From: an uncultured delta proteobacterium
GTDB taxonomy: Bacteria; Myxococcota_A; Polyangia; Fen-1088
Reading direction: 5' to 3'
Length of the DNA: 64,000 nt
Assembly: GCA_963767925.1 (NCBI GenBank)
Contig: CAVYGB010000009.1
Coordinates: 128,001-192,000, forward strand
Position 1 is the first letter of the stretch, and every line of letters begins with the position of its first letter. The notes beneath the pieces were generated by a model. It had not been told where the DNA came from, ran no database searches, and saw only the letters and a list, made by a program, of their open reading frames with translations. Made by a program: the position numbers and the translations under genes. This document shows, one piece after another, positions 5,847 through 60,200 of the stretch.

Positions 5847-6363
5847 CCCGCCCCAGCGCCGCCCCTTCCGCCATCGGGCGCCCGCCCCAGCGCCGCCCCT
5901 TCCGCCATCGGGCGCCCGCCCCAGCGCCGCCCCTTCCGCCATCGGGCGCCCGCCCCAGCACCGCCCCTTCCGCCATCGGGCGCCCGCCCCAGCACCGCCC
6001 CTTCCGCCATCGGGCGCCCGCCCCAGCGCCGCCCCTTCCGCCATCGGGCGCCCGCCCCAGCGCCGCCCCTTCCGCCATCGGGCGCCCGCCCCAGCACCGC
6101 CCCTTCCGCCATCGGGCGCCCGCCCCAGCGCCGCCCCTTCCGCCATCGGGCGCCCGCCCCAGCACCGCCCCTTCCGCCATCGGGGTGCCCGCCCCAGCAC
6201 CGCCCCTTCCGCCATCGGGCGCCCGCCCCAGCACCGCCCCTTCCGCCATCGGGCGCCCGCCCCAGCACCGGCACCGCCCCTTCCGCCATCGGGCGCCCGC
6301 CCCAGCGCCGCCCCTTCCGCCATCGGGCGCCCGCCCCAGCGCCGCCCCTTCCGCCATCCGGCG
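5847..6363. repeat. tandem array, 15 x 34 bp
   Basis: unit CCCGCCCCAGCRCCGCCCCTTCCGCCATCGGGCG, no spacers; one copy has +1 nt and one has a 6-bp duplication. Confidence 0.95.
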
Positions 6364-6521
6364 CCCGCTTCAGGCCGGCGCCGCCGTTCCGCCGTCCATC
6401 GCCCGCCGTCGCGCGCCTTCGTCGACGTTGCGCGGACCAGCTCCCTCGCGTCTCTCGTCCGATCGGCAGGACGATCGTACTTGAAACTATGCCGCGTCTG
6501 AGTTACTATTGCCTCATTCAA

Positions 6522-7199
6522 ATGGGGGACCCCAAGCGCTGCGCTCAGCTCGCCTTGCCCCGGACGTCCGGGTGGGGTGGTCGACGGGAGGGGGCCGGGC
6601 GTCCTCCGATTGCCGGACCGAGGCGGCCGGCGCCGCATCGGACGCGGCCGCCCCACAAGGGCGCCCATCCGTTGCACGTGACCTTGCGGGCCAGGGCGGG
6701 GTTGGTCTCGTTGCGGAGCAAGCGGGTCTTCGGCGTGTTGCGGGACTGTTTTCGTGCGTCGAGCTCAGCAGGCTTCCGGGTCGTGCAGTTCTCGGTGCAG
6801 GCCGACCACGTGCACCTGTTGGTGGAAGCAGAGGACAAGGCGGCGCTGTCGGCCGGAGCGCGGGGGCTCGTGATCCGGAGCGCGCTGGCGATCAATCGAG
6901 CCTGCCAGCGCACCGGACGGATCTGGGGAGATCGGTACCATGCGCGCGAGCTGGCGACGCCGCGGGAAGTGCGCAATGCGCTGGTCTACGTTTTGATGAA
7001 CCACAAGAAGCATGGCCTTCGCGACCGCGGGCACATCGACCCCTGCTCATCGGCCCCCTGGTTCGACGGCTTCCGCGTCCCACCCGCGCCGCCGACCGAC
7101 CCACCGGTGACAAGCTCCCCCCTCACCTGGCTCGCAACGGTCGGCTGGCGTCGGCGCGGCCTGATCGACCCGACCGAGTCCCCCAAGACCGTTCTGTGA
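6522..7199 (+). CDS. HUH/Y1 tyrosine transposase, REP-associated (RAYT / IS200-like)
   Basis: HVTLR, QADHVHLLVEA (HUH), IWGDRYH, ALVYVLMN (catalytic Tyr), IDPCSS; N-terminal WGGRREGAGR. Confidence 0.88.
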   Translation: MGDPKRCAQLALPRTSGWGGRREGAGRPPIAGPRRPAPHRTRPPHKGAHPLHVTLRARAGLVSLRSKRVFGVLRDCFRASSSAGFRVVQFSVQADHVHLLVEAEDKAALSAGARGLVIRSALAINRACQRTGRIWGDRYHARELATPREVRNALVYVLMNHKKHGLRDRGHIDPCSSAPWFDGFRVPPAPPTDPPVTSSPLTWLATVGWRRRGLIDPTESPKTVL

Positions 7200-7336
7200 G
7201 CACCCGGCCTTCGCCGCTGAGGGCGCGCCGGTTGGGGGAAGGGGCGTTGTGCTGTGGGGGGACGTGGGCGGCGAGGGAGATGGACGGCGTGGCGACGTGG
7301 GCGGGGGCGCCGGAGAGCGAAGGGGGGCTGAACCGA

Positions 7337-7404
7337 CGGGGGCGGGGGCGGGGGCGAGGGCGGGGGCGAGGGGGGGGGCGAGGGGGGGGCGAGGGGGGGC
7401 GGGG
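7337..7404. repeat. G-rich low-complexity tract (GGGGCG/GGCGAG)n
   Basis: repeated G3-G8 runs between the convergent RAYT and amine oxidase genes. Confidence 0.75.
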
Positions 7405-9156
7405 TGTCTGGTGGGCGGCGAGGGATTCGTTGGCGGCGCGTTCGCCGGTTTCGAGGGCTCCGTGGACGGTTCCGAGGGCGCCTTCGGTGTGGGTGGCTTC
7501 GCCGAGCGAAGAAGAGGGTGGCGGCGACCGGGGCGGCGAGGTGGGCGGGGGCCGAGAGGCCGCCGGGCGGGAGGAAGGTGTAGGCGCCGCGGGCGTGTGG
7601 ATCGGCTTGCCAGTCGAAGACCCGGTGGGCTTCCAGGTCGGCGGCTAGGGCGGCGGGGTCCAGGCCCAGGCCGCGGGCCAGGCTGCGCAGGGCGGCTGCG
7701 GTCACGTCGTGGGCCGGGCGGCCGCGGAGGGCCTCGGCGGGGGGCCACCGGACCAGGCGACGAGGATGCGCCCCGCTCCGGCGGCGCCTGCCAGAAGGTG
7801 GGGAAGGGCGCCCGGGGGGGGTGCAGGAAGGTGAAGGCGCCGGCTTCCGCGTGGCCGCTACGCCGCGCCTGCCCGCCGCGCTGTCGCTGCGGGCCGCTGC
7901 CTGGCCGGCGCTGCGGGCCGCTGCCTTGGCGCTGGATCCGCGGGCGGGCCGCTGCCTGGCCACGGGCGCTGCCGGCGCTGCCGCTGCCGGCCGCCGCCTT
8001 GGCGCCGGAGCGGGACGCCGCTTTGGTGGCGCTGCGGGACGCTGCTTTGGTGGCGCTGCGGGACGCTGCTTTGGTGGCGCTGCGGGACGCTGCTTTGGTG
8101 GCGCTGCGGGACGCTGCTTTGGTGGCGCTGCGGGACGCTGCTTTGGTGGCGCTGCGGGACGCTGCTTTGGTGGCGCTGCGGACGCTGCCTGGCCGTGGTC
8201 ACCTTCGCTGCGGGTCGCCCACTGCCCGCCCGGGGGGGGCCTTGCCGGGTACTACGGCGGTTAGGGGGTGGCGGAAGCGGAGGAGGGTGCGGACGACCGG
8301 GCCGACCTGCAGGGTGCGGATGGCGTGGCGCTTATCGGCGGGCAGGGGGGGATCGAAGCGGACGGCGCCGGGGGTGCGGGGGTTGGCCATGAGAACGCCG
8401 AGGGGGAGGGTGACGACCAGCGCCCGGGCCCGCACCGGGGGGGGGAGCGGGCCGAGGACGTTGCGCGCCTCGATCGTGACGGCGCCGCGCCGCCATGTGA
8501 CGATGCGGGCCTCGACGCCGAGGCGCAACTCGGCGCCGGCGTGCTCGGCGCGGGCGGCCAGACGCTCGACAAGCGGGCGGTAGCCGCCCTGGACGCGGAA
8601 CAGGCGGTCGCCGTCGATCTCCGCGGCGCCAGGGTCTCCTGCCGCAGGCCCTGCATGCCTCTATCCGGTCGGCGGGAGCGGCGTTGATGCCCTCGACGTA
8701 GGCGCGCAGCAGGCTCTGCACGTCGGGGCCGGCCTGCCGCCGCCAGCCGGCCTGGGTCGCCAGCTCCTCGAAGGACCGATCGCGCCCGGCCTGCGGCAGC
8801 TCCTCCAGCAGGGCCAGCGCCGCCTGCCAGCGGCCGTCGACCCGGGCAAAGCGGCGGCTGTCGCCCTGCCATGGCGCTCGGGCACCTCGTGCAGGCGCAG
8901 CCGCGCCCGCCGCAGCAGCGACAGCAGGATGGGCGGCCGGCCGTGCACGAACTCCGCCCCCCGCCTCGATCGGCCCCGGCCAGTCCGGCTCGGTCCGGGT
9001 GTCGACCCGCCCGCCGACCCGATCGCGCGCCTCGAGCACCAGCACGCGCGCGGCGCCCGCCGCGAGCGCCCGCGCCGCGGCCAGCCCCGCCACCCCGGCG
9101 CCGAGCACCACCACATCCCAGCGCCCGCCGGCGGTGGGGCGGCGGCTGGCGGACAT
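7400..9156 (-). pseudogene. flavin-containing amine oxidase family gene with multiple frameshifts (3' end approximate)
   Basis: GAGVAGL...LEARDRVGGR, GAEFVHG, VVTLPLGVL, DWQADPHARGAY, LFFA/EATH..GTVHGALETG, distributed over several frames. Confidence 0.8.
8011..8178. repeat. tandem repeat, 7 x 24 bp, inside the amine oxidase gene
   Basis: unit CGGGACGCTGCTTTGGTGGCGCTG. Confidence 0.95.
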
Positions 9157-45678: not shown

Positions 45679-45750
45679 GGCCCCATGGTCTAGCGGTCAG
45701 GACGGCGCCCTCTCACGGCGCACTCCCGGGTTCGATTCCCGGTGGGGTCA
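45679..45750 (+). tRNA. tRNA-Glu (anticodon CUC), CCA not encoded
   Basis: acceptor GGCCCCA/TGGGGTC+A; D arm GTC..GAC; anticodon arm GCGCC-CTCTCAC-GGCGC; T arm CCGGG-TTCGATT-CCCGG. Confidence 0.95.
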
Positions 45751-47408
45751 CGCGCAAAGGTACACCTGCTTCTAGGTGCGCCGTCCCGTGGATCGCCCAG
45801 ACCTTGCGGCCGTCGGCCACGGTCGGGCGGAAGCTGAGCGAACCAGGTGGGAAGAGGGCCTGGATCGCCTCCCGCGTCCCGGCGCGGTCGGTGGCGAGAG
45901 CCTGGCGAAGCGAGGCCAGCTTCTGGCGGGCGGAGGTTTGCGCCTGGGCGAGGAACTCGCGGCGCACCTGGGGGAGGCGCCCTGCCACGGCCAGGTCGGC
46001 CTCGATCTGCTTGATGCGGGTCGATCGGCGCTGCAGCTCGGCGACCAGCTCGCTGACGTCAGGAGCGGCCGCCAGGGCAGCCGCGTACTTCTTCTGCTCA
46101 ACGCGGAGCTGTACGAGCTCGGTTTCCAGCGCTGTCGATTCGCTTGGCGCCGCCACGGCGCGCTCGATCTCCGCGGTGACGTCGGCGACGATGCGGTCGA
46201 CGACCTCCTCAGTGAGCACGGTCGCGCACATGTAGCGGACGAGCGCCCCCTCCACCTCGTCCACCGGCTGGCAAATCGTCACGGGGCAGACGGCCTCGCC
46301 GCGCTTGTGGTGCCAACCGCACGCGTACGCCGTCACCCGGCCGCGGCTGGTCTTCGTGTTCCGCGTGCTGATCCCGCCACCGCAGTGATCACACTTCCCG
46401 ATCCCGGCGAGCGCGTGCTTCGCGCCGCGCCCGACCTGGTATGTGCGGGCGCCCCGGTTCGGAAGCTCCGCCTGCACGGCCTCCCAGGTCGCGTCGTCGA
46501 TGATCCGCCACTCGGCGACGGGCACCCGCATCACGTGGGCGGGATCGGCGACCTGGGCACTCCGCTTGCCGCCGCGCTTGATCCGGTCCTTGCGTCCGTG
46601 GACGTAGAACCCGATGTACCGTTCACGGCGGAGGATATCGCGGACGGTGCTGGGGTCCCAGGAGCGTGTGCCGCGACGACCACGACCGGGTGACGGAATC
46701 CCTCGGCGGTTGAGGTCCTCAGTCGTTCGCTTCAGACCCCAGCCCTCGAGGCACATGCGAAAGATCCATCGGACGACCTCCGCCTCGCCCTCGTCGACCA
46801 CGGCCGCGGTGTACTGGCGGCCGCTCGGGTCCGACCTGCGCTCGTTCCTGTACCCGAAGCAGGGTGCCGCCAGCGATCCGGCCAGCCCGCACCCGCTGAC
46901 GGAGCGCCTCTCGCGTCCGGGAGCGGATGGCTTCCAGCTCCATCTGGGCGCCCACGCCTTGGATGAAGGTCATCGCCGCGTCGATCGCGGTCTGGAAGGC
47001 AACCTCCTGGCCGGAGCTGTAGTAGAAAAGTCGCGCGCGGCGATCGCGGACCAGCTCTCGGACCGTGACCGCCGAGTCGATCGCGTCGCGCCCGAGCCGA
47101 AAGTGGTCCCGGCAGACCACTACGTCGCCCGGGCCAACCTCCGCCAGCAACTTGCGAAGCGCCACACGCCCGGCGAAATCGTCGCCGGCGATACCATCGT
47201 CGACGTAGTCATGGACTCCCTCCCAGAGAACGGGAGACTCGCGGCGGCGGAGCCCCTCCGCGAAGCGGAGCGCACCTTCGCGCTGGGTGTCGATGCTGAA
47301 CTCCTGGCCCTCCTTCTCGGACCGGCGCAGGAGGATCCGAAGCGCCGGCTGGGACCGGACGAGCTTGAGATTCGAGTTGCGAGAACCGGGGCCGCTCGGG
47401 GAGGGCAT
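45713..47408 (-). CDS. large serine recombinase (resolvase + recombinase + Zn-ribbon + coiled coil), +1 frameshift near 46864
   Basis: LLRRS..Q..SI..Q, DDGIAG, FRLGR, ELEAIRSRT, FGYRN, LN.RGIPSP...W....VR.IL..ERY.G, GKCDHCGG...YAC...C; 3' end runs antisense into the tRNA. Confidence 0.88.
45738..45766. other. attL of the serine-recombinase island (tRNA 3' end plus island arm)
   Basis: core CCCGGTGGGGTCAC repeated at 54404; arm CGCAAAGGTACACC is the reverse complement of 54385-54398. Confidence 0.88.
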
Positions 47409-47440
47409 GGTCGCCAGATTGCCAGAGTCGCCGGGCAGGA

Positions 47441-47554
47441 TCAGCGCCCTTCGCGCAGCTCGTGCAGGATCTGTCTTGCCAGGACGCGGGCCAGCGCGCG
47501 CGCTACCTCCACCTTCGCCTCATCGCTAGGCTCTGGGAGTTGAAGGATGGGCAT
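47441..47554 (-). CDS. 37-aa helical peptide immediately upstream of the recombinase
   Basis: MPILQLPEPSDEAKVEVARALARVLARQILHELREGR preceded by an AAGGGA RBS-like sequence. Confidence 0.45.
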   Translation of the reverse strand: MPILQLPEPSDEAKVEVARALARVLARQILHELREGR

Positions 47555-48065
47555 TGGGGCTACGTCCCTTGGAGGCGACCTCTTCCAGAGCACCGCCATC
47601 GATGATGAAGGCACGAAGGGAACTGCCGTCTCGGTCCAGGGCGACGTTGCCGGTGTGAAGGTCCCCGTGGCAGCTTCGCCTCTCGATCCAGACAGGCCTT
47701 TCGAGTGAAGCCAGCCGTTGGAAGACGTCGGCCGGCTGGAGTCCGGATCCACTCGATCCCCACTTGCGAGCAACCTCCAGCAGGCCGGCATGCCTGTCCA
47801 GTCGCGCGGGCGACCACAGGAGAGATCGTAATGGCACCTCCTGTGGGGCGGAGCTCGGAAAGGACCGCAGCTGTGTCGCGATATCCGCCGCGATTTGTGG
47901 GGCAGCTGCCACGACGGCCTCCGGCGGGGAGCGCAGGAGCTCCGCGATGGAGACGGGCGGGTTCTCGGACGGACCCGCCTTGCCGGTGACCAGCAGCGAG
48001 GTCGTGCCGGAGGCCCAGCGGCCGATGACCTTGATGTGGTGGAGTTTGCTGTCCAGACGGACGGC
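47526..48065 (-). pseudogene. APH/choline-kinase-like phosphotransferase fragment
   Basis: CHGDLHTGNV...FIID motif, truncated just after it; no clear N-terminus. Confidence 0.55.
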
Positions 48066-48148
48066 CGAGGCACTACCTGGTCCAGTTTCGCCAGCTGCTG
48101 AGCGCCACCCAGGACAGCCGCAGGACGCTGCTGGCCGCGTACGCCGGA

Positions 48149-48488
48149 TTGAAGGATTGGCGCAACCTGGGCTGGGTCGACACGCTGGACCTGGTTCACG
48201 CTCCCTGGTTCGACGGCATCGACGGGATCGATGACCTGCGCATGGCCGCAGATCTGACCGCACTCAACGTCGAGCAGGCGCAGAAGGTGTTCGGAGAGCT
48301 GAAGGAGCTTGACCAGCTGGAGCAGCATCCCCGGTACCGCCGCGACGGGTGGTTCCGCACCAAAGTGGACTCCATCCGACGGATTGCACGTCGCGCCCGA
48401 TCACACCGCATGGCGATTCTCAGGCAGATGCAGCTCCAGAACCAGGCCTTGAGCAAGGACGTGGCCAAGATCCGTCGCCTCCGCGACC
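48149..48488 (+). pseudogene. fragment of an unknown helical protein abutting the radical SAM remnant
   Basis: coding-like GC3 up to ~48488, then an abrupt switch to another frame. Confidence 0.35.
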
Positions 48489-48489
48489 G

Positions 48490-49335
48490 ATCGTCTCCAA
48501 TGCCAAGTTCGGCTCCACTCAGGACAAGGCGAAGCGGATCCAGGGCTCCTGGCGGGAAGCGGGGCTGTGTGAAGTCAATTTCAGCTGCGGCGAGTTTCAC
48601 CAGGAGTTCGTCCCCATCGAACACGTGGCCAACGCCTATCGAGCGGCCTGCGAGCTGGGATTCAAGACCGTCCTGCTGGCCGGAAACTTCCTGGCGCCGG
48701 GGCGCGGAAAGCTGGACCGCCGGATGTTCGAGGAGGCCGTTGGACGCCCGCTCATCGATGTACAGGACATGAGCCCGTACAGCGGATATTCGCACGGGAT
48801 GTCCGTCTCCGAATCGATGCCCTATGGGCGCGGGCGCGAGTTCGTGAATCCAGGGGACATCACCTTCCATCCGGTGGACAAGATTCCCAGTTGCTGCGAC
48901 CACATCCTGGTTGGCATCACCGCCCACCCCAACGGAAACACCACGGCTTGCTGCGGGATCATGGTCCGCCAGGAGTCGCTCCTGAACATCGGAAACTGGC
49001 GGCAGCAGACCCTGGCTGAAATTGTCGGACGCGCCCACCAGGATTTCGTGCTCAACTGGATCAAGTATCGCGGCCTGCGCGAGATGAAGACCTGGCTGGA
49101 GGCGCAGGATCCGGGTCTGAAATTTCGCAAGGAATATCAGAACATCTGCGATCTGTGCGCGGAGATCGTCTATAACCCGCGGGCTCAGGCGTTGCTGGCG
49201 AAGGGCGACGAGGAGATGCGCAAGCAGATCGTCGCCACCAAGGTGGTGACGGACGCAGTCCTCAATGCGCCTGACTTCAAGTATGAACCGTCGCGCGACC
49301 CGCTGGGACCGCCTCATGCTGAATCTCACGGATGA
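48490..49335 (+). pseudogene. radical SAM / SPASM-twitch protein (YydG/EpeE-like) lacking the N-terminal CxxxCxxC
   Basis: IVSNA.F...GL.EV.FS..EFHQEFVP.EHV.NA; CCDH...HPNG...ACCG...IGN; ICDLC. Confidence 0.7.
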
Positions 49336-50482
49336 GCGGGCCATCCGGTCGCTGCGGGAATTCCTGCGCGAAGTCGGTTATGGCCCCGCCAGCCGGGTCT
49401 TCGCAGCGGCGAACGACGACCTGGTGTTCCCGCCGTTCCGGGAATTGCAGACCCTCCTCAAGGCGGCGAGCCCCTTCCACCGACTTCTGTTGAGTGTCCT
49501 GCGGCTGGGCCACGCGGCCTCGGAGAACCAGCTGGTGCGGGCCTTTGGCCGGGAAAACCTGGACCTGCTGCTGGGGCTCAACCTGCTGGTCGCCGACGAA
49601 CGCGGCGAGTTTCACACGCCCAGCCTGGCTCTCGTGGAGACGGCCGGCCTGAGCCTCGTCGTGAGCCTGCCCGCACACTATCCGACCGGCACCGTGCGAC
49701 AGCAGCCGGTCCACCTGGGTCCGGAAGCAAACTTTCTCGCTCGATCGCTCCCCGCTTCGCTCCAGGGCCAGGATGTGCTCGACGCCTGCAGCGGCGCCGG
49801 CCTGCAGAGCCTGATCTGCGCGTCGCGGGGGGCACGCCGGGTCGTCGGTCTCGACCGATCGCCGCTGGCGGTCAACTTTGCCCAATTCAACGCCCTGCTC
49901 AACGGCTTCGGGAAGACCGTCGAGTTCCGACAGTCGGACGTGCTTTCTGCTCTGGATCCTTCGGAGCGGTTCGACTACGCCGTCTCGCTGCCACCATTCT
50001 TGCCCCTGGCGGACCTCCTGGAGACCGCCACCCGGGCCGCCGACGGGACTGCAGTACTGGCGCCGGTCCTCGAGCAGCTGCCCCGCCATCTGGCAGAGGG
50101 TGCGGCCGGCCTCATCTACTGTCAGGCGTTCGGGGATCAACATCGCATCTTCCTCCATGACCGGTGCAAGTCGGGTCTGAAGGCGGCAGGTGTTGAGGTC
50201 ACCGCATTCGTGCTGGCGAAGCTGCCGCTGCGGATACATTCCGATCGGGTGCTCGACACCCTGCGGCGCGCCGCCTTCGACGTGACCCGGGAAGACCGGG
50301 AACGAGCCGCCGCAACCTGGACCGCTCAGATGCAGGACGCGGGAGTCGAATTCGTCTACAGCGAGCTCCTCGACCTTCGGCGTACCCACGCCGAGCCGAC
50401 CTTCTCGCAGGTCCCGGTCTACGACGCCAAGATGACAGATCCTCTGGTGACCGCGGTCAAGATGAATCGCATGGCGGTATGA
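49316..50482 (+). CDS. class I SAM-dependent methyltransferase (HemK-like)
   Basis: VLDACSGAG, GLDRSPLAV, NALLNG, FDYAVSLPPF (NPPF variant); overlaps the rSAM stop. Confidence 0.85.
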   Translation: MLNLTDERAIRSLREFLREVGYGPASRVFAAANDDLVFPPFRELQTLLKAASPFHRLLLSVLRLGHAASENQLVRAFGRENLDLLLGLNLLVADERGEFHTPSLALVETAGLSLVVSLPAHYPTGTVRQQPVHLGPEANFLARSLPASLQGQDVLDACSGAGLQSLICASRGARRVVGLDRSPLAVNFAQFNALLNGFGKTVEFRQSDVLSALDPSERFDYAVSLPPFLPLADLLETATRAADGTAVLAPVLEQLPRHLAEGAAGLIYCQAFGDQHRIFLHDRCKSGLKAAGVEVTAFVLAKLPLRIHSDRVLDTLRRAAFDVTREDRERAAATWTAQMQDAGVEFVYSELLDLRRTHAEPTFSQVPVYDAKMTDPLVTAVKMNRMAV

Positions 50483-50496
50483 AGCGAAGTCCGAAA

Positions 50497-50969
50497 TGGT
50501 GTCCGACATGATCTCCGAAAAAGCGTCGAGCCACGATCGCCCTCTGCACCACAACGCGGTCCACGTTGGCCGCCGCGTCGGCGCCGCCATCATCACGGCG
50601 GGTTTGCTGGTGGCGAGCATCGCCGTGGCGTACGACAGCCGGAATCCTGCTCATCTGATCGGACTTCTGCTTCCCGCCACCGTGTTCGCGCTGAGCTGGC
50701 CCACCATCTGGCGCTCGAGCCGGGTTTTTGCCTCGGATCTGGGGCTGCGGATCGAATCCGGCGGCGAAAGCCGATTCGTTCCCTGGCAGTCGGTCACGGG
50801 CGTCGCCGTACCCTCCTGGGTGATCAATCCGGTTGCCTGGTTCGAGCCCCGGGCTATCACCTTGCGTGACGGCTCGCGCGTGCTGTTTTTCCCGGCGCCT
50901 GGCGCGGTGGCCCTGGTGAACGCCCGGGTGCAGGCCGAGCCGGGCACCCCGGAACGAAGCCGGGCCTGA
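50497..50969 (+). CDS. small membrane protein (two TM helices plus PH-like domain)
   Basis: two hydrophobic segments followed by GLRI......RFVPW.SV. Confidence 0.6.
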
Positions 50970-50976
50970 AGACGTC

Positions 50977-51669
50977 GTGTCGCAAGACCCCAGTCCCGGC
51001 CCCCCGGCCTCCGCCAGCGATGGTCTGACGCCGGGGGCGGTCGCCGGCGTCGCTGCGGTTCCAGCAGTCATTGCGCTGGCCATCCGGGCCTTCGGATTCG
51101 AGCTCCATTTGGCGGTGGTGCTCGCGGGTGCATTCGGCTGGGTCATCGCCCTGGTGCTGCGCCCTGTGGTGGCGGCGCTCGCGAAGCGCATGGGCGTGAG
51201 AGGTCGGGCCTTGCAAGTGGTCGTGGTGGGCTCGTCGGGGCCGCTCGAAGAGGGCGTGCGCCTGCTGGTCCTGATGTCCTGTGCGCGATCGCCCGAAACC
51301 GCCCTTTCGGTCGGATTCGGGTGGGCGACCGTCGAGGTGGCTTTCACCCTGGTCGGCTCGATCATCACCCGGCTGGTGCGCAATCGGGCGGGCATTCCAG
51401 CGGAGAACGCGCAACCGACCAACGCACCTCGGCCGTCACCGGCCTGGGGCGTGCTCGAGCGACTCTGGGCGAGCGGCCTGCACCTGGGCTTCAGTCTCGC
51501 GATCGCGGCCTACGGCCTGCTCGTGGTCCCGGCCGCGGCGGCACACTCCGCGACCAACCTGCTGGTCTGGCGCGCGCTCTCCCGAGGCCAGGGGATAGCC
51601 CGCCTGGAAGTCGTCGGCACCGTCTGGAGCGTGCTCGTTCTCCTGGTGGCGAGCGCCCTCTGGTGGTGA
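50977..51669 (+). CDS. YhfC/PrsW-like intramembrane glutamic metalloprotease
   Basis: GPLEEGVR (EExxR), GFGWATVE, ER.....HL, HSATN; multiple TM helices. Confidence 0.75.
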   Translation: MSQDPSPGPPASASDGLTPGAVAGVAAVPAVIALAIRAFGFELHLAVVLAGAFGWVIALVLRPVVAALAKRMGVRGRALQVVVVGSSGPLEEGVRLLVLMSCARSPETALSVGFGWATVEVAFTLVGSIITRLVRNRAGIPAENAQPTNAPRPSPAWGVLERLWASGLHLGFSLAIAAYGLLVVPAAAAHSATNLLVWRALSRGQGIARLEVVGTVWSVLVLLVASALWW

Positions 51670-51709
51670 GCATCCCGTGGAAAAACAACTCCCGATCTCT
51701 GGAGAGCCC

Positions 51710-53161
51710 ATGACTGATCTTGATCGTCGTCTTGCCCCCGGAAAACCCGTCGGCGCGCCATCGGTGGCTAGCTGGGTGCTGGCTTGTTGCCTTGCCGCTG
51801 CCTGTGCATCGCGGCCGGCGATCACGCCCGCGCCGATGGCGCCCGCTTCGCCGACGTCGGCGGTGTCCCCTTCGCCGGTCTCACCTCCTCCGGACGTGGG
51901 CGCGGCGGCCCGGTCGACGACCCCCGAACAGGTCGGCGAGCTGGTCTGGTCGGCCTTCCGGGCGGGAGACCTGGCGGCGGTTCGTTCCCGCTTCGATGCC
52001 CGGATGGCGGCTGCCCTTTCGCAGGAAAAGCTGACCCAGGTGTGGAGCGGAATGACGACGATGGTCGGCCGGCTCGAGAGCTGGACTCTCTCCGAGAACC
52101 GCCCGGAGGGCGAGGTCACGCTCCTCGTCTACACGTTGTCGCTGACCGGGGGTCATGTGCAGGGCCGCCTGGCGCTCGATCGTGAGCTGGCCATCGCGGG
52201 GCTTTTCTTCACGCCCCTTCCTCCCCCCGCAGTGAAGTCGGGCGCCGACGGACAGACGCCCGCTGCCCCACCGGGCGTTCGCTCCGAAGCGGTCCGCGTG
52301 GGCCAAGCGCCATGGGAGCTCGCGGGCGTGCTCACCGCGCCAGCCTCGCCAGGCAAACACCCCGCTGTGGTCCTGGTGGGCGGTTCAGGGCCTCTGGACC
52401 AGGACGCCACCGTGGGGCCCAACAAGCCCTTGCGCGATCTGGCGGAGGGCCTGGCCGTTCGCGGCATCGCGACGCTCCGTCATGAAAAGCGCACGTTCGC
52501 CCACCGGGACCGCCTCAGCAACGACATCACCGTCGAGCAGGAGGTGATCGCCGATGCGGTCCTGGCGCTCGCCCTGCTTCGTGCACGCCCCGAGGTCGAT
52601 CCCGACGCCGTCTTCGTCGTGGGCCACAGCCTGGGTGCCCAGCTGGCTCCAGTCATTGCCGAGCGAGACGGGAGCGTGGCGGGGCTGGTCCTGCTGGCGC
52701 CGCCCGCCCGGCGCATGGCGGACGCCATTGTGGATCAACTGCGATACCTCGGTCAGGCCCCCGAGCAGGACCTGGCGGCGCTCGCCAGCAAGGCAAAGGC
52801 CATCTACGACGGCGTGGCGCCCCCCGGGGAGACGTTCCTGGGTGCGCCGGCCGCCTACTTCGTGGATCTCGAGCGGCGTGACGCCATGGGGGTTGCGCGC
52901 AAGCTGGGCAAGCCGATGCTCGTGCTGCGCGGAGCACGCGACTACCAGGTCGTCGAAAGTGACTTTCGCGCGTGGCGGGCGCTGGTCCAGAAGGTGCCGG
53001 GCTCGACGGCGGCGACCCTGCCGGGGCTGAACCATCTCTTCATTGCGGGGAAGGGAAAGCCTGGCTCGGCAGAGTATGCCACGCCCGGTAAGGTGGCCGA
53101 CTCGGCGCTCGACCGGATCTCATCGTTCGTGAAACGGCACAAGCGCATGGCGCACCGCTAA
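51710..53161 (+). CDS. lipoprotein alpha/beta hydrolase with DUF3887-like N-terminal domain
   Basis: LAAAC lipobox; GSGPLDQD, GHSLG, GARDYQV, LNHLF. Confidence 0.85.
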   Translation: MTDLDRRLAPGKPVGAPSVASWVLACCLAAACASRPAITPAPMAPASPTSAVSPSPVSPPPDVGAAARSTTPEQVGELVWSAFRAGDLAAVRSRFDARMAAALSQEKLTQVWSGMTTMVGRLESWTLSENRPEGEVTLLVYTLSLTGGHVQGRLALDRELAIAGLFFTPLPPPAVKSGADGQTPAAPPGVRSEAVRVGQAPWELAGVLTAPASPGKHPAVVLVGGSGPLDQDATVGPNKPLRDLAEGLAVRGIATLRHEKRTFAHRDRLSNDITVEQEVIADAVLALALLRARPEVDPDAVFVVGHSLGAQLAPVIAERDGSVAGLVLLAPPARRMADAIVDQLRYLGQAPEQDLAALASKAKAIYDGVAPPGETFLGAPAAYFVDLERRDAMGVARKLGKPMLVLRGARDYQVVESDFRAWRALVQKVPGSTAATLPGLNHLFIAGKGKPGSAEYATPGKVADSALDRISSFVKRHKRMAHR

Positions 53162-53612
53162 CGTCGACGATTCGTCACCGGGCGCCGGAGCAGTCGAAAG
53201 GCCCGGACTGGCCCGGGTTGTCACAGGCTGACCGGAAACGAGGGCGATCAGGTGCCGTGCGGCCGCCCCTCAAATGGGCTTCTCGCTGGCGCCGGGGCGC
53301 ACGGGTCGTGGAAACTTTTTGGCGTACCACCCCGAAGGATGGGGCATGGGAAACCCGCCCGCTTGGTCACCCGGCCGCTCCTCGACATCAGGGGCCTGAA
53401 CGGTGGACGCGCCAAACTTCGCCCTGAGAGAGTTGTCCTGAGGCGCCGGATCGCCGAACTGCTGGCCACGGTGGGTGCGCCGAGCGCGAGGTGAAGGCCG
53501 GCGGCGCTGTTCGTGGGGCCTAAGCCTGGCCTAAGCCCGCCGAAATCCAACTCCAATGGACCGGCGGTTTCCGCGTTGCCCAGGTGCCCCCGCAGCCAAC
53601 GGCTGGATCCGA

Positions 53613-53984
53613 TCACCTTCCGATCGGCAGACGTCGAACGCGGATGCGAGCCTGATCGAATACCACGATCGCTCCTGCTTGCAGGTCGGCGTCGACAGCC
53701 GAGAGATTCGCCAGCAGGAGCTGGAGCTGACGATCGGGTCGGCGTTCCGTGCCGTGGCGAAAGAGAATCACGGAGGGCAGGGCGATGTCGAGCGTTGCGA
53801 GGAGTGTCCCAAAATCGGTATCCGCGGAGATCACGACGCGTTTTTCGACGGCCGCACGAGTGAGGATCTCCCGGTCGGACGAGGTCTGCATGCCATAGTC
53901 GCGAACATGAACTGCGTCGTGCCCGGCATTGCGCAGGCCCTCGGCGACCGTTGGGGAGAGCGCGTTGTCGACCAGGAATCTCAA
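53613..53984 (-). CDS. DUF5615 PIN-like toxin
   Basis: [30 protein letters not shown]. Confidence 0.9.
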
Positions 53985-54211
53985 GCCACGGTCTTGAGAG
54001 GAAGCTCGCGCTCCCGCACGGCTTCAGCCGCGTACCGCAGAGCTTCGCCGATGTCGGCGCGCTCCAGGTCTGGGTAGGCGGCGAGGATCTCGTCATGAGT
54101 CATGCCGTCAGCGACCATGGCTACAACCGTCGCCACAGGTATGCGTAGACCGCGGATGCAGGGTTGCCCCCCCATCTGGTCCGGCTGGAGAGTGATCCGT
54201 TCGTACCTCAT
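53981..54211 (-). CDS. DUF433 antitoxin
   Basis: [19 protein letters not shown]...EIL.AYPDLE..DI.EAL.YAA; stop overlaps the toxin ATG. Confidence 0.92.
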
Positions 54212-54384
54212 GACAAGATCCCTATTGTGCCACAGGTCAGCGGTGACCGTCCTGGCGCGCCGCCCAACGATCGGCGATCTTGCCGGTGCATCGGTGTCGA
54301 GCCCGGTTTCGGCTGCCTGGGCGGTGGCACGACCGTGCTGCCTCATGCCGCACGCCGCGCGACGAGAATCACCGGGATTTCCAG

Positions 54385-54417
54385 GGTGTACCTTTGCGGA
54401 TGACCCGGTGGGGTCAC
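54385..54417. other. attR of the serine-recombinase island
   Basis: GGTGTACCTTTGCG-GA-TGACCCGGTGGGGTCAC. Confidence 0.88.
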
Positions 54418-55272
54418 ACGCAAATGTGGACGGCGAGATCTTCGCCGTGCCGGAGATTGCCCACACGCGTCGGCCGCCGGCCTCGGCGGGGGCGAAGCAG
54501 AGGGCGCCGGGCCCGAACAGAGCCTGGAACACCTCCCGCATGCCGGACGGGTCGCCGGCGAGGGCCTGCCTGAGGTCGGCCAGCTTGCTCCGTGCCGAGG
54601 CCTCCACCCGGGCCAGCAGCTCGCCGCGGACATGCGGGGCGCGCTTGGCGGCCGCCAGGTCTCGGTCGATCTGGGCGAGGCGCTCCCCGCGCCTTTTCAG
54701 CTCGACGATCAGCTCCTGAACGTCCGGCACCGCCGCCACTGCCGCGCGTACTTCTTCTGCTCCCCACGCAGGCGTTCGCGTTCGGCTTCGAGGGCGACGA
54801 CGTCCGACGGTTCCGCGGCCGCCCGCTCGACCTCCACCCGGATCTCGCGGAGTACCTGGCCGACCACGGCCTCGGTGAGGATGGTCGAACGGATGTAGTC
54901 GACGAGCGCGCCCTCGATCTCGGCGACAGGCTGGCAGAGGGTCACGGGGCAGACCGCCGAACCGCGGCGATGGTGAAAGCCACAGCCGTAGCCCTTGATG
55001 TGGCCTCGGCTGTCTCTCGTGTTCCGGACAACCATGCGACCGCCGCAATGGGCACAGGTGCCGATGCCGGCCAGGGGATGCTTCGAGGCCCGGCCGGCGG
55101 CGTAGTATGCGGCGCCCGGCTCGCTTCCTGCCCGCGGGCGTCCCGCTGGCGCTCGTTCCGGTATCCGAAACAGCGACCGCCGGCGACATGCCCCGCCCTC
55201 ACGCGCGCGCGGATGCCTTCGCGGGTCCGGGAACGAATCGCCTCCAGCTCCAACTGGGCGCCGACCCCCTGG
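54418..55272 (-). pseudogene. decayed paralogous large serine recombinase (older tandem element)
   Basis: QGVGAQLELEAIRSRTRE...GGRCFGYRN, internal deletion, CPVTLCQPV.E.EGALV.Y, VWAISGTA; colinear with 45713-47408 but lacking the catalytic N-terminus. Confidence 0.85.
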
Positions 55273-55655
55273 TCGACCTCCGGCATACCGGCCTGAGCTG
55301 GATGATCCGAAAGAAGGGCATCACGAAGGCCGCGCTCGACTTCGCCGGTCACAGCGCGCCGGCGATGATGGCGAAGATCTATGGGCACGCGTTGCCCCTC
55401 CAGCTCAGCGAGGTCGTGGATGACTTGGAGTCGATCGAGAACGAGCCCGAGGCGCCGGTAGATCTGAACCGAGCGTTACCTGTCGAGGGGCCTGGCCCAG
55501 CGCTCTCGTACCCCGATGCGGAGCCCGGCTTTCCGACGGCGACACCGGTCGCGGAGGATGCCTCGGGCCGCGGCTCCCGCGCTGGCGGTGAGAGCCAGGT
55601 GGCGCCCCGGGCGGCGCGAGGGGCGCCGGCCCCTCCGGTGCGCTCTTGTCGGTGA
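55272..55655 (+). pseudogene. C-terminal fragment of a tyrosine recombinase
   Basis: DLRHT..SW.........AGHS...M..KIYGH (LRH / GH / catalytic Y). Confidence 0.7.
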
Positions 55656-55661
55656 GGCGCT

Positions 55662-56195
55662 GGCGAGACTGGAGGGCGACCCGCGCGCCGCCGCCAGCCC
55701 CCGCGGATTTTCCGTCTGGCGGGTGGCGCTCGAAAGACGCCGGCGAGGGCAGGGCGGCAGGCCGACTTGAAAGGGCCGGGCCCGGGCGAGGCACTCCCGC
55801 TCGCATCGGCCAGGTGGCGCCCGGCCGGCGCGTTCCCCGGGGGGGGCTCCGTCGGGGACGGCGGTGGCGAGCTGGAGGCCCGGGAGACCCGCGTGCGCCC
55901 CGCCAGCACCCCGGGATTTTCCCCGCTGGCGGCGGCCCTTGAAAAACGCCCCGGCGAGGGCAGGGGCAGGCCCCACTTGAAAGACCGGGCCCGGGCGAGG
56001 CCCGCTCGCATCGGCCAGGGTGGCGCCCGGGCGGCCCGCGCGGGGGTGCGCCTGCGCCGCGGAGCCCTTCTCCGTCGGGGACGGCGGTGCCGAGCTGGAG
56101 GCCGGAAGAGACCCCGCGCGCGCCCGGGGATTTTCCCGCTGGCGGTGGCCGCTTGAAAAACGCCGGGGCAGGTCCAGCGGTGGCGCTTGAAAAAA
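55662..56195. repeat. ~2.5 imperfect direct repeats of ~205-225 bp
   Basis: recurring blocks CGAGCTGGAGG, GGATTTTCCC, CTTGAAA, CCCGCTCGCATCGGCCAGG, CTCCGTCGGGGACGGCGGT. Confidence 0.75.
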
Positions 56196-56508
56196 ATTGA
56201 GAGTGTGAGGGGAGATCAAAGAGCATCGGGTATCCACGCCAGGTCTTCTCAAGGAGCCGCGTGAGGAGGTCATCCAGGGTCTTGGGGTACTTAGGCGAGA
56301 GCAGGCGATCGAATTTACGGGCCCGAGCTAGAAGGTCCGGGGGGACGTCGAAACCAGCCACGATGGCGAGAAACTCTTCCAGCCGAGTGGGATCACGAAG
56401 GTCGATGATCCTCTCGACGGTGCCGCTGACCGAGAGATAGGTTACCGATTCTCTCTCTGTTAGGGCGATTTCCTCTCTGCTCAGGCCGGTTGGCTCTTCG
56501 AGCTTGTA
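56190..56508 (-). pseudogene. internal fragment of a probable RES-domain protein
   Basis: lower-GC frame GLSREEIALT..SV..SVSG.VE.IIDL...WRGYPMLFDLPSHSQFF; family assignment from recalled similarity only. Confidence 0.45.
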
Positions 56509-56509
56509 C

Positions 56510-57165
56510 CCGTAGGAGGCAAACCGCCACAGGAGTCCGAGACCTCGATCAGAAGGCGCCCCTCGTGTCGCCGCCCGGAGACCCTGACGCGTCCCTCGAG
56601 AGGGGTAAACTTGATTGCGTTCAAAAGCAGGTTCGTGACCGCTGAGCGCAGCAGCCGAGGGTCGGCCTCGAGAACCAGATCCTCAGGAACAGAGAGCTGA
56701 ATCTCGATGTCTTTGATCTGGGCCTCGCCGGCCGAGTCCAGTCGGATCTCTTCCAGGAAGTCCCGTACACGGAGCGCTTCGGGTCGGACCGTAACCCCCA
56801 GCTTCAGCGAAGCGTGGGTCAACGTGGTATCAATCATGTCGGCGGTGCGTTTGAGATTCCTTTCGAGGAGATCGACTGCCCGCCCGCCCTGGGAGAGCTC
56901 CTGCAATCGCAAGCGGTGCAGGGCCAACCGCGCGGCCGATATAGGGTCGCGTAGCTCATGCGCAATGAACCCGAGGTGCTCGGACGCCTGACGCTGGATC
57001 TCCAGGTTCCTTTCGAGGGCATACTGGGAGACTGTCTGGGCGATCCCGGTTGGTGCGCGACTGCGGGTGCTCGATGGTGCCGACGACCACGTCGCTCAGC
57101 GAAGGATGCCCGGTGTTGCCGGGACCCGGACCATCCGGGGCTCGGGACGGTCGATCGGTGTTCAC
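56510..57165 (-). pseudogene. sensor histidine kinase remnant
   Basis: LGFIAHELRDP H-box, NLLLNAIKFT N-box, DSCGGLP, then truncated before the G2 box. Confidence 0.7.
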
Positions 57166-57200
57166 GTCGGATCATCGAACGGTGCGCGGGCAGAATTGCT

Positions 57201-57239
57201 CCCTCCCCCGGCGCGATGGCCGCGCCGGGGTGGGGAGGG
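57201..57239. terminator. GC-rich hairpin downstream of the beta-propeller gene
   Basis: CCCCGGCGCG...CGCGCCGGGG inverted repeat with CCCTCC/GGAGGG outer extension. Confidence 0.45.
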
Positions 57240-57267
57240 GACACGATGCCCAGGAGGTTCCGGGCGG

Positions 57268-60200
57268 CTACATCTGGATGGGGAGCTCGTTGCCGGCGTT
57301 GGCGGGCAGGTGCGAGAGGCCGAAGTGGCCGGAGGCCACGTAGATGTCCTGGTCGAACACCTCGATGTGGGTGGCGAAGCCGAGGGTGCGCAGGAAGCGC
57401 AGGCCCCTGGGCGCCTGGGGGTTGGACACGTCCACCACCAGGATGCCGTCGCCCCCGCCCGAGCCGCCGTAATACCCGCCGTTGCCGGCGAGGTTGATGA
57501 ACAGCTTGCCCTTGTCGGTCCCCATGAGCTGGATGTTGTACATCCGGGTGGCCTGGTCGTAGGCGGGGGTCAGCCGGGCGCTCGACAGGTCGAAGATCAT
57601 CAACCGGTCCGAGGTGGTCTCCCAGGTCGGCTCGGCGGCGAGCGCCTGGGGGCGCGGTCCCACCGGCGCCGTCGGGAGGGGCGGCGGGGTGGCCACGCCG
57701 ACACCGGGGAAGCCCCAGTAGTAGTTCTTCTGGGGCCGCCCGTTGATGAACAGGCGGTCGCCGTCGACGAGGAGGGCGGCGGGGTAGAGGTCGGTGAGCA
57801 CCCGGGCGTCGCGCAGCTCGGCCGCCGGCTGGCCCCCCACCGTCGCCTCGCGCAGCAGCGACAGGCGGTAGTCGCTGACCCAGCGCTTGTTCTGGTCCTC
57901 GGTGAGGATGCGGTAGTTGCTGTCCTGGGCGAGGAACATCCGCTCGCCGGCCCCGCTGCGCCAGGTGCGGATCAGCCGCCCCGGCGTGTTGATGTCATGG
58001 ACGGCGGCCCAGCCGGCGCCCTCGGGCTCCCAGCGCTGGGCGAAGTACTTGTAGCGGGTGTAGGTGACCCCGTCGGGCGTGCGGGTCTCGCCGATGCGCT
58101 TGCGGGTGCTGACGTAGAAGCCGGCCGGCTCGGCCGGGTCGGCCACCACGCCGAACGAGCCCCACTCGTACCCGTCGGGCAGCTTCTCCTCGCTGGCGGC
58201 GGGGGCGTCGGGGTCGCGCACGTCGAGGAACAGCAGCTTGCTGGTCATGCTCGACTGGCCGTTTTCGTAGCGCCACTCCGAGACGTAGAAGGCGAACCCG
58301 CGTTCGGTCATGGCGAAGTTGGCGACGTTGTCGAACCAGAAGCCGCCCCAGTAGGCCCCCATCCCGCACCAGTAGGGATAGTAGGGCACCGCCAGGGTGG
58401 GCAGCTCGACCTTGCCCGCCATCCGCGGGCTGGCCGGATCCCGCAGGTCGACGACAAGCGCCTCGCTGGTGGGGGGCACGTAGACGCCCGTGCGGGGGTC
58501 GATGCTCTGCTTCTGGCGGAACAGCACCAGGCTCCGGTCGTGCTTGAGCACCCGGTAGACCTGGCCCGCCTCGAAGGTGGCCAGGACAGGCGCGTTCTCC
58601 AGGTCACCCCCGGCGAGCTTGACCCGGAAGCTGGCCAGCTCCTGCCCGGGACCCCGGCCGGCGTTGGGCTTGCCCTGCACCTGCTCGACCAGGTGATCGC
58701 CGAAGCGGTAGATCTGGTTGTAGTAGGGGGCGAGCTCGATCTCCGACTCCAGGGTGGGGTTCTGCAGGTCCTGGATGTTGGCGATCGAGATGTGGGTGTC
58801 CGACAGGTTGACCATCATGCGGGCGGGGGCCGCCCCCTGGTGGGTGAAGACCACCGAGCGCTTCACCTCGCCGTGGGGGTGCACGAAGGTGCCGTAGTTG
58901 GCGATGACGTTCTGCTGGGTGGCGGGGCGGTTGGCGACGTAGCGGGTGAGGTCCCAGGTCATCAGCCCCACCGCGGTCTGCCACTGGTACCACCACCAGT
59001 CGCCGGCCGAGTCCATCCGCTTTGTGTAGTGGATGGGGACGGTGATGACGTTGAGCGAGCCGTCGGCGTGCATGCCGAGCATCTTGTGGGCCTGGTCGAG
59101 GTTGCTTGTCACGCCCGAGCCGATCCACTCGGCGTTCTTGACCGCCACGCACTGCCGCTGCACCAGCTTGATGGCGGCCAGGTCCTGCACGTCGATCAGG
59201 CTGACCGCGATCTTGGTGGGGCTCAGCCCCTCGTTGCCCTGCAAGCCGGCGCAGGTGGTGCTGTTGTCCTGCCCCACCGCCAGCAGGAACTTCTTGTCCC
59301 CCACCAGGCGGAACACGCTCATCTCGCCCGAGAGGCCGTCGATCTCCGAGGCCACCCGCAGGTTCCGGGGATTGGCGAAGCTGATGGCGTAGAGCGGGTC
59401 GATGCGCTGGGCGGTGATGGCGTAGACCACCTTGCGGTCGGCGTCGTAGGCGCTGGCCCGCACCACCTCGTTGCGCTTGCCGAAGTCGAGGCTGTCGAGC
59501 TTCTCGGGCTGGCCCCGCAGGCTGACGTCCCAGGACTCGAGCGTGTTGGCGGTGTAAGAGCTGCCCCTGGCAGCCGGACGACTCCCAGACCTGGCGGGCG
59601 AAGATGCCGTAGAAGGTGCCGGTGTTGCTGACCGGGTCATCGACGTAGGTCATCTTGAACTGGTCGTCGAGGTTGCCCCCGGTCTCGAAGCGAGCGTGGA
59701 GCTGGATGTCGCCGTTGGGGTTGCTGATGTCGATCAGCGAGACCCGGGCGAACTGGTTGTTGTTGTAGCTGCCGCAGCCGCCGAAGCCACCGGGCTGGGA
59801 CGGGCCGCGGGAGGAGGCCCAGACGTTCCAGTTCTCCACCACCATGAGGGCGTTGGCGGTGGCGGAGATGGCCACGCTCTCGAAGCGGCGCTCGTAGCTG
59901 TTGCCCTGCATGTCGCTGATGCTGAGGCTGCCGCCCTCGAAGACCTTCAGCTCGCCCACCTGGCGCGGGTTCTGGGCGTCGGCGACGTTGAAGGAGTAGA
60001 CGGTGGCCTGCTCCTTCTGCTGCTGGCCGGGCTCGGGCCGCCAGCCCCAGTAATACGACTGCGAGACGTAGGAGACGACGTAGATGGTGTTCTCCACCTT
60101 GCGCGAGACGCCCTCGCGCAGCTCACCCACGATGTCGATGGTCCTGAGCAGCTTGGGGTTGCGCAGGTCGGAGACGTCGATGGTCACGAGCTGCGAGACG

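Follow-up and report, generated by a model that had tools for sequence, protein, structure and literature searches.

A tRNA-Glu island encodes a large serine integrase whose conserved, tag-like tail would be removed by integration

Results

An island bounded by inverted half-sites at a tRNA-Glu gene

We analyzed a 64,000-nt stretch of DNA (the window; contig CAVYGB010000009.1, positions 128,001 to 192,000) from an uncultured delta proteobacterium, in which an 8,666-bp integrated island (island 1; 45743 to 54408) encoding a large serine integrase (int1) adjoins the 3' end of a transfer RNA (tRNA) gene. The window copy reveals an arrangement that, from comparison of sequences, appears to be family-wide: integration into tRNA-Glu would remove a conserved, tag-like tail from the integrase. 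The host assembly that contains the window (G000) comprises 9.3 Mb in 13 contigs and is 84% complete. The integration target is a tRNA-Glu gene with anticodon CTC (45679 to 45751, plus strand), the only tRNA called by ARAGORN in the window, and its final 8 nt are supplied by the island. Island 1 was delimited by repeats and by composition, with a G+C content of 0.62 to 0.70 versus approximately 0.75 in the left flank.

An exact direct repeat of 13 nt, CCCGGTGGGGTCA, bounds the island at 45738 to 45750 and 54404 to 54416 and extends from the end of the T stem through the 3' acceptor strand to the discriminator. This 13-mer occurs four times in the 9.3-Mb assembly, once in each of the two tRNA-Glu(CTC) genes and once at the distal end of the island at each, with the distal copies lying 8.7 kb and 20 kb from the respective tRNA gene on the island side. 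The 24-nt arms to the right of the attL center (45743 to 45766) and to the left of the attR center (54385 to 54408) are inverted copies of each other at 20 of 24 positions, and no other arm candidate in the scanned 8.9 kb exceeded 9 of 24. With up to two mismatches allowed, the outer 14-mer of the arm has only three occurrences in the genome, among the true copies. When the island ends are joined, they form a 48-bp attP-like site with inverted half-sites and a nonpalindromic GT center, located within the 3' end of the integrase gene. The GT at the center of symmetry (G54408/T54409) is equivalent to G45742/T45743, the boundary between the T stem and the acceptor stem of the tRNA.

Both attachment sites were assigned from the sequence and from half-site comparison. 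attL (45719 to 45766) consists of a B half in the tRNA (45719 to 45742) and a P' half in the island (45743 to 45766), with its central GT at 45742 to 45743. attR of island 1 (54385 to 54432) has its P half at 54385 to 54408 and its central GT at 54408 to 54409. The P half of attR is joined to the P'-type half of an adjacent decayed element (54409 to 54432), and an attP-like site is thus physically present in the chromosome at 54385 to 54432. An earlier note on this DNA had described a near-perfect 48-bp palindrome centered on GT and had placed it, as an attP-like site, inside the integrase open reading frame (ORF). The palindrome is real, since its symmetry is far above chance when set against the next-best candidate, and it does lie inside the ORF.

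No syntenic empty counterpart of the window locus turned up among 20 relatives, since paralogs of the flanking kinase gene are numerous. tRNA-Glu(CTC) genes that look unoccupied were instead present at seven of eight loci (L102 to L109, from eight related genomes), each followed by ordinary sequence; the eighth locus, L104, stops at a contig end and so shows no downstream side. At three of these loci (L106, L107, and L108), the 14 nt immediately downstream of the tRNA are in part a mirror image of the T-arm side, with GGG...CGAA on either side. An attB with dyad symmetry about the same center would look like this.

The integrase gene has an integrated and a predicted free-form 3' end

int1 (45713 to 47408, minus strand) starts with an ATG at 47408 and stops at 45713 to 45715, inside the tRNA gene read antisense, as determined from Pfam matches, translations, and alignment with a paralog. 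The Resolvase domain (PF00239; 1.2e-16) lies on the ORF at 46719 to 47408 (minus strand), and the ORF at 45713 to 46801 (minus strand) carries the Recombinase domain (PF07508; 1e-23) and a Zn_ribbon_recom match (PF13408) of 24.2 bits, just below the cutoff of 25.3. The R-R-S residues of the catalytic region are invariant across 56 aligned relatives. int1 therefore has the features of a large serine recombinase, namely a catalytic domain, Recombinase and zinc ribbon domains, and a short attP with inverted half-sites. Its frame is interrupted, a feature missed by the earlier reading: relative to an intact paralog on contig C8 of the same assembly (88% nucleotide identity, with a single frame-breaking gap), int1 is split by a 1-nt insertion near 46866. 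The nearest read-derived contig (46401 to 46831) ends short of 46866 and does not decide between mutation and assembly error.

The intact paralog encodes a 564-amino-acid integrase that ends ...RVTPPGIEPGIAP; its protein sequence is 87% identical to that of int1, and its P' arm is almost the same. It resides at a second tRNA-Glu(CTC) gene, which adjoins tRNA-Gln, in a locus (G000:C8:1941267-1961459; L002, L016, and L017) whose 20-kb island contains IS21-like genes. The 13-mer is present at the distal end of that island, and the arm there is only a 12-of-24 mirror of the P' arm of its own integrase and resembles the half-site of a different family member. The C8 island is thus composite.

In the integrated state, the int1 ORF ends in tRNA antisense as ...RVTPPGIEPGSAP, and the minus-strand frame ending at 45713 reads ...GTAHLEAGVPLRVTPPGIEPGSAP. 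Across the joined island ends, the ORF would instead terminate ...LEIPVILVARRAA; the frame running leftward from the attR center reads ...RVTPPGHPQRYTLEIPVILVARRAA, with its stop at 54343 to 54345. On the basis of translations and of homologous tails in two other genomes (G008 and G005), the free-form integrase tail comprises 19 codons (HPQRYTLEIPVILVARRAA) and a TGA stop (54343 to 54402, minus strand), within which the conserved 13-residue motif LEIPVILVARRAA is encoded at 54346 to 54384 (minus strand). The free form ends in RRAA (…ARRAA) and the integrated form in GSAP. The crossover dinucleotide falls directly after the last folded residues of the zinc ribbon, and so integration removes the last 19 codons and substitutes seven tRNA-antisense codons.

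The exchange of C-termini upon integration that the earlier note had predicted thus follows directly from the anatomy of the locus (the 13-bp repeats, the palindrome, and both frames). Its reading of the integrated C-terminus as tRNA antisense also held, because the intact paralog and two metagenomic proteins of 90 to 91% identity end alike, so that the terminal frame of int1 is not a sequencing artifact. The same note had allowed for an alternative frame ending ...CTFARDPTG. That frame is excluded for int1 by the intact 564-residue paralog; a frame of the CTFARDPTG type is the usual one among int1 relatives.

The free-form tail is conserved as a reading frame

Searching the G005 and G008 genomes with the P-arm motif of a metagenomic locus, L066, located a single site in the former and an array of nine or more in the latter. 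Nine attR-type sites were read, eight from G008 and one from G005. Five of the nine encode 13-residue ends terminating in -AA (LEKPLNVVALRAA, LAFPLELVALQAA, LAVPVEVVALRAA, LEIPASLAALRAA, and QEIAFEFAVLRAA*), and these five conserved tails continue in the frame used by their cognate integrases. The other four sites have decayed, one by an early stop, one by read-through, and two by divergence. In all six tails (window plus five), the stop falls at the same codon, as either TAG or TGA. The distance from the crossover center to the first tail codon is 24 nt in the window and 23 nt in G008, precisely the offset required by the different frames in which the two integrases cross the site.

Codon patterns in the tail were also compared. 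Pairwise differences numbered 48, 55, and 85 at the first, second, and third codon positions, and for codons differing by a single nucleotide the ratio of synonymous to nonsynonymous differences was 40:38 in frame versus 9:63 and 25:62 in the other two frames. The window tail LEIPVILVARRAA reads plainly as the same peptide as the G008 and G005 tails. As far as sequence comparison reaches, these data show the removed tail to be a conserved peptide, kept in frame across relatives that cross attP in different frames. The earlier note had named a survey of homologous islands for a conserved extension or -AA ending past attR as a test that could refute its prediction; the outcome was favorable, with five of nine sites here and the enrichment across the family described below.

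The G008 sites (G008:C6:1320193-1368378; L122 to L129 and L133 to L136) form an attR-type array that extends for 62 kb on the upstream side of a single frameshifted integrase at tRNA-Glu(TTC). A tRNA 3' fragment, a P arm, and the tail-coding stretch make up each site, and each is accompanied by a separate, diverged copy of a flanking sequence resembling the DNA downstream of the tRNA. No other family integrase was found within the array. If these integrases form a large and mostly uncultured clade of the kind proposed below, arrays of the G008 type would be fossils of the repeated use of one tRNA site.

An integrase family at tRNA-Glu genes

A word-indexed protein search returned 204 family proteins, of which the best 120 were taken. 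Among these best 120 of 204, most C-termini correspond to tRNA 3' ends translated antisense, in any of three frames, exemplified by ...TPTGFEPVLPA, ...DPNGIRTRV..., and ...RPRRDSNPCYLRERRVS. Forty metagenomic loci, all with the integrase 3' end on the contig, were then examined. The ORF enters a tRNA gene at 22 of the 40, every one of them tRNA-Glu (CTC or TTC), and no tRNA was found at the integrase end in the other 18. An ORF running into tRNA-Glu is also present in genomes G443, G393, G005, and G008 and in the C8 paralog. The family is sparse among the representative genomes: with the host included in each count, it was found in 4 of the 89 genomes from the order and in 4 of the 401 sampled from the phylum.

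The unintegrated form, with the palindrome inside an uninterrupted ORF, was recovered at two metagenomic loci, L054 (15 of 24 positions) and L066 (18 of 24). When distal P arms were sought in those other integrated relatives that had enough upstream DNA, none besides the window scored above 12 of 24; in most the flanks were too short. No family relative was found among curated plasmids (threshold, 1e-40) or phages (1e-30), and viral contigs yielded a single relative, L018 (an IMG/VR contig, 6289 to 8067). The L018 ORF keeps to the tRNA-like motif over a few codons (…DPNGIR) before diverging; neither a tRNA nor a recognizable palindrome (best, 11 of 24) was found there, and an endolysin-like gene lies 5 kb downstream.

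A relative from the same genus (L005; G001:C153) encodes an 85%-identical integrase that follows the tRNA antisense through …RVTPPGIE and continues into about 90 unrelated codons. ARAGORN called no tRNA at this locus, where the tRNA seems to have been disrupted or replaced. A match in G488 was set aside as a more distant recombinase without a tRNA at its end.

An AlphaFold2 model of the relative P0009 had a mean predicted local distance difference test (pLDDT) score of 87.5 and was confident to approximately residue 537, with long helices of the coiled-coil type. Its best Foldseek matches were full-length serine integrase-att complexes (9y66, 9dxh, 9iu2, and 9rah).

-AA endings are enriched among tails not derived from tRNA

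To the word-indexed set were added the best 150 proteins from a profile search of 1.84 billion representatives, and sequences of at least 480 amino acids were kept, giving 226 proteins. These comprised 99 with tRNA-type tails, 33 that stop at the crossover motif, and 94 with other tails. Among the 94 non-tRNA tails, 27 end in AA, 8 in VA, 2 in LA, and 2 in AI; by comparison, an -AA ending was found in none of the 132 tRNA-type tails (99 plus 33). The background frequency of -AA in the host genome is 1.7% of six-frame ORFs and 2.2% of gene-like ORFs. Because the family proteins are related, binomial figures overstate the significance of this contrast, which is still large.

Tail architecture was examined in 42 aligned proteins that were chosen for small-residue endings and so are not an unbiased sample. 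In these, the tail past the crossover motif is 10 to 34 residues long (median, 18.5), and the crossover motif itself reads DPxG, VPxG, SPxG/TPxG, or RPQR, the peptides expected from all three frames.

Interpretation of the tail

C-terminal Leu-Ala-Ala, and variants such as LVA, target proteins to ClpXP, and LVA-type endings are also present among the family tails. The host encodes both clpX and clpP. Its transfer-messenger RNA (tmRNA), which specifies the tag ANDNAFALAA, is encoded at G000:C6:444065-444425, about 300 bp from a contig end; it was found with the Rfam model and was missed by whole-genome ARAGORN. In the P0009 model, the crossover motif and the 19-residue tail have pLDDT values below 50, and the tail is predicted to be disordered. 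The features of an ssrA-like degron are thus present at the sequence level: an x-Ala-Ala end in the window (…ARRAA) and in 27 of the 94 family tails that end in AA, and an unstructured tail in the P0009 model.

The best explanation of these findings, and in our judgment a reasonably probable one, is that the tail is an ssrA-like tag and that recombination switches the stability of the integrase. In the proposed mechanism, integration into tRNA-Glu would strip the conserved tag-like tail from the serine integrase, a tail that would act, in the manner of ssrA, as a C-terminal tag for degradation or for recognition by ClpX. The enzyme produced from the free circle would be short-lived or otherwise handled by ClpXP, that produced from the integrated element would lack the tag, and recombination itself would toggle the stability of the integrase. 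To this extent the interpretation offered in the earlier note is supported. We put forward more tentatively, with its chances a little short of even, the wider proposition of a clade of tRNA-targeting large serine integrases with attP inside the ORF, in which integration would delete an ssrA-like tag and excision restore it, under selection in all three frames.

Several points weigh against a stability switch. We infer proteolysis of the tail-bearing integrase from the character of its ending, and a stable integrase in the integrated state would have no obvious selective rationale without a known directionality factor. Because int1 is frameshifted, neither isoform could be produced from the window copy as sequenced; with this lesion, and as part of a tandem array with a decayed neighbor, the window copy is probably a dead member of the family that is no longer autonomous. 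In public reads, which gave low-depth fragments only, no piece across attL or attR was found that would represent a circle junction or an emptied tRNA site; one public run contained 14% of the sampled words, and three runs of one study contained only short, low-depth island contigs and unrelated tRNA matches. Where ssrA has Leu before Ala-Ala, the window tail has Arg, as do 9 of the 42 aligned endings. The attP-form relative L054 ends in YAG, and the distal end of the C8 island reads …RRRMAV*, not -AA. Among the 94 non-tRNA tails, a nonindependent sample of related proteins, 52 lack a terminal Ala, although some of these tails are surely decayed or truncated. The free-form status of the diverse -AA proteins was read from the peptide alone, and a database search for a protein with the exact window tail gave no match, which is weak evidence.

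Other functions for the tail were weighed against a stability switch. The tail might be a handle by which ClpX, or another unfoldase, remodels the integrase and strips it from a stable product complex on attL, as with the C-terminus of MuA. The overlap of attL with the tRNA gene would fit this explanation, as would the endings …RLRRAI and …RLDRAI that occur beside …RRAA and …LRAA and that resemble the basic MuA-type motif. Most endings are plain xAA, however, and sequence does not distinguish remodeling from degradation; we consider a remodeling handle unlikely.

No better placed is the proposal that the tail contributes to recombinase function itself, for example through a contact with the coiled coil or the catalytic domain, and so controls directionality rather than stability. 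In variants of this proposal, only the free form would carry out attP x attB recombination, or only the tRNA-tailed form would be licensed for excision. In its favor, a hydrophobic block (L-E-I-P-x-x-h-V-A-L) is conserved besides the terminal AA, and in the available part of the literature on Mx8 IntP an altered C-terminus changes activity. On the other hand, the tail is predicted to be disordered and detached from the fold, in a monomer model that cannot show intermolecular contacts, and distant relatives share only the terminal pair of small residues, which fits a protease tag better than an interface.

It is considerably less probable that the conserved stretch past the P arm acts as DNA, whether as an extended attP, a directionality-factor site, a promoter, a terminator, or the like, and that its translation is incidental. 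The stretch adjoins the 24-bp P half-site, is alike at the DNA level in the window and G008, and persists in G008 at sites without an integrase of their own, all of which a DNA element would explain. It would not explain why the third codon position is the most variable, why synonymous differences are enriched only in the integrase frame, why the stop position is constant though TAG and TGA alternate, why a 1-nt offset preserves the tail frame, or why -AA recurs in relatives of 26 to 46% identity with otherwise unlike tails. That the tail has no function, the ORF merely continuing until it meets a stop in G+C-rich DNA in which codons for Ala and Arg are plentiful and the -AA background is about 2% rather than zero, is strongly disfavored and almost certainly wrong, given the excess of -AA over that background and the conservation of tail length and stop position.

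Relation to known systems

The proposed stability switch would follow the same principle as integration-dependent immunity, transferred to the gene of the serine integrase itself. As described in the accessible part of one account of mycobacteriophages, attP lies in the repressor gene and integration removes an -AA ssrA-like tag; the same account describes tandem prophages for which the reading frames across the shared att sites are important (PMC9934374). The examples considered were BPs, Brujita, and Charlie and the prophages of clusters G, N, and P and of M. abscessus. As in those phages, attP here is inside an ORF and integration removes an -AA tail, in this case at the level of sequence. 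Unlike in those phages, the split gene is the integrase itself rather than the repressor, and the recombinase is a large serine enzyme rather than a tyrosine integrase. The outcome there is immunity, in actinobacterial hosts, whereas the hosts here are Myxococcota-like and no repressor is involved; no repressor-like ORF spans attP in the window. The BPs integrase carries a constant tag of its own.

Phage Mx8 integrates into a tRNA gene. For Mx8 (IntP/IntX) and for SSV1, the available portions of two sources place attP within the integrase gene, such that integration gives int a new 3' end (PMC6070905, PMC4383910). int1 resembles Mx8 IntP in the position of attP within the ORF, in the new 3' end acquired on integration, and in the myxobacterial host group. 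The Mx8 and SSV1 enzymes are tyrosine recombinases, whereas int1 is of the serine type by its domains and its relative P0009 matches serine integrases. An -AA tag is not described for Mx8 or SSV1 in those portions, and the SSV1 gene is split in two, not retailed as here.

With the phiC31, Bxb1, A118/LI, and TP901-1 integrases, the family shares domain order and fold and an attP of about 48 bp with inverted half-sites and a nonpalindromic dinucleotide. To our knowledge, attP in those four systems lies outside the integrase ORF, and their targets are protein coding. The likeness to the ssrA/ClpX motif consists of a short disordered C-terminus in which a nonpolar or basic residue is followed by Ala-Ala, and the host tag ends in ALAA. 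Unlike an ssrA tag, which trans-translation appends, this tail is part of the gene itself; Arg is frequent at position -3, and ClpX recognition is a prediction.

According to the accessible part of the Islander paper, serine integrases were not known to target tRNA genes. The available part of a preprint on tycheposons reports large serine recombinases in 27 of 937 elements (10.1101/2020.12.28.424599), and the term "tRNA" was not found in the available part of a large survey of recombinases (PMC10083194). In the full-text literature searched, with subscription journals and supplements lying outside it, we found no description of a serine integrase with attP in its own ORF or of one that loses an -AA tail.

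One-way insertion of DNA relies mainly on large serine integrases, whose control is commonly attributed to the recombination directionality factor alone. Recombination that rewrites the C-terminus of the enzyme itself, exchanging a conserved tag-like tail for a neutral one, would give such a natural family a further, self-contained level of control. The family also indicates that serine integrases can specialize on tRNA genes, which affects island-finding software that assumes tyrosine integrases at tRNA sites, and it would offer compact att sites in a universally conserved target.

A decayed second element and cargo genes

A remnant of a second family integrase (int2; 54410 to 55271, minus strand) was identified to the right of attR by three-frame translation, with tblastn pieces of 57%, 57%, and 72% identity. 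The N-terminal domain of int2 is mostly lost, and its three pieces are in different frames, the last of which crosses the site in the other frame (…STFACDPTG). The P'-type arm right of attR matches that of the island at 19 of 23 positions. The DNA to the right of attR is therefore not chromosome, as the earlier reading failed to recognize, and consists of a P'-type arm and the 3' part of int2. The presence of a second decayed integrase and of a P'-type arm beyond attR makes the locus a tandem array. Large serine integrases normally refuse attP x attL, yet tandem arrays occur here.

The place expected for the 5' half of int2 is occupied by three degenerate repeat copies (55691 to 56166; families D1 and D2 of the repeat search), which are about 210 bp apart and 70 to 80% identical. 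TRF reported nothing on 54400 to 57300. Gene-like codon usage starts again near 57268.

The cargo of island 1 includes a gene similar to S-adenosylmethionine-dependent methyltransferases (49265 to 50482, plus strand; Pfam MTS, 3.6e-10, and related families) and a gene for a DUF3887 plus alpha/beta hydrolase protein (51677 to 53161, plus strand; Pfam, and PHROG esterase/lipase, 3e-12). At the right end of the island is a DUF433 gene (53981 to 54212, minus strand; Pfam DUF433, 1e-23, at residues 332 to 387 of the ORF at 53981 to 55189). The start of the ORF that follows it has a translated motif suggestive of a putative DUF5615/PIN-like partner. From their sequences, the DUF433 gene and this ORF (53650 to 54212, minus strand) look like a toxin-antitoxin-like pair, which in the free form would follow closely after the stop of the integrase gene and share its strand.

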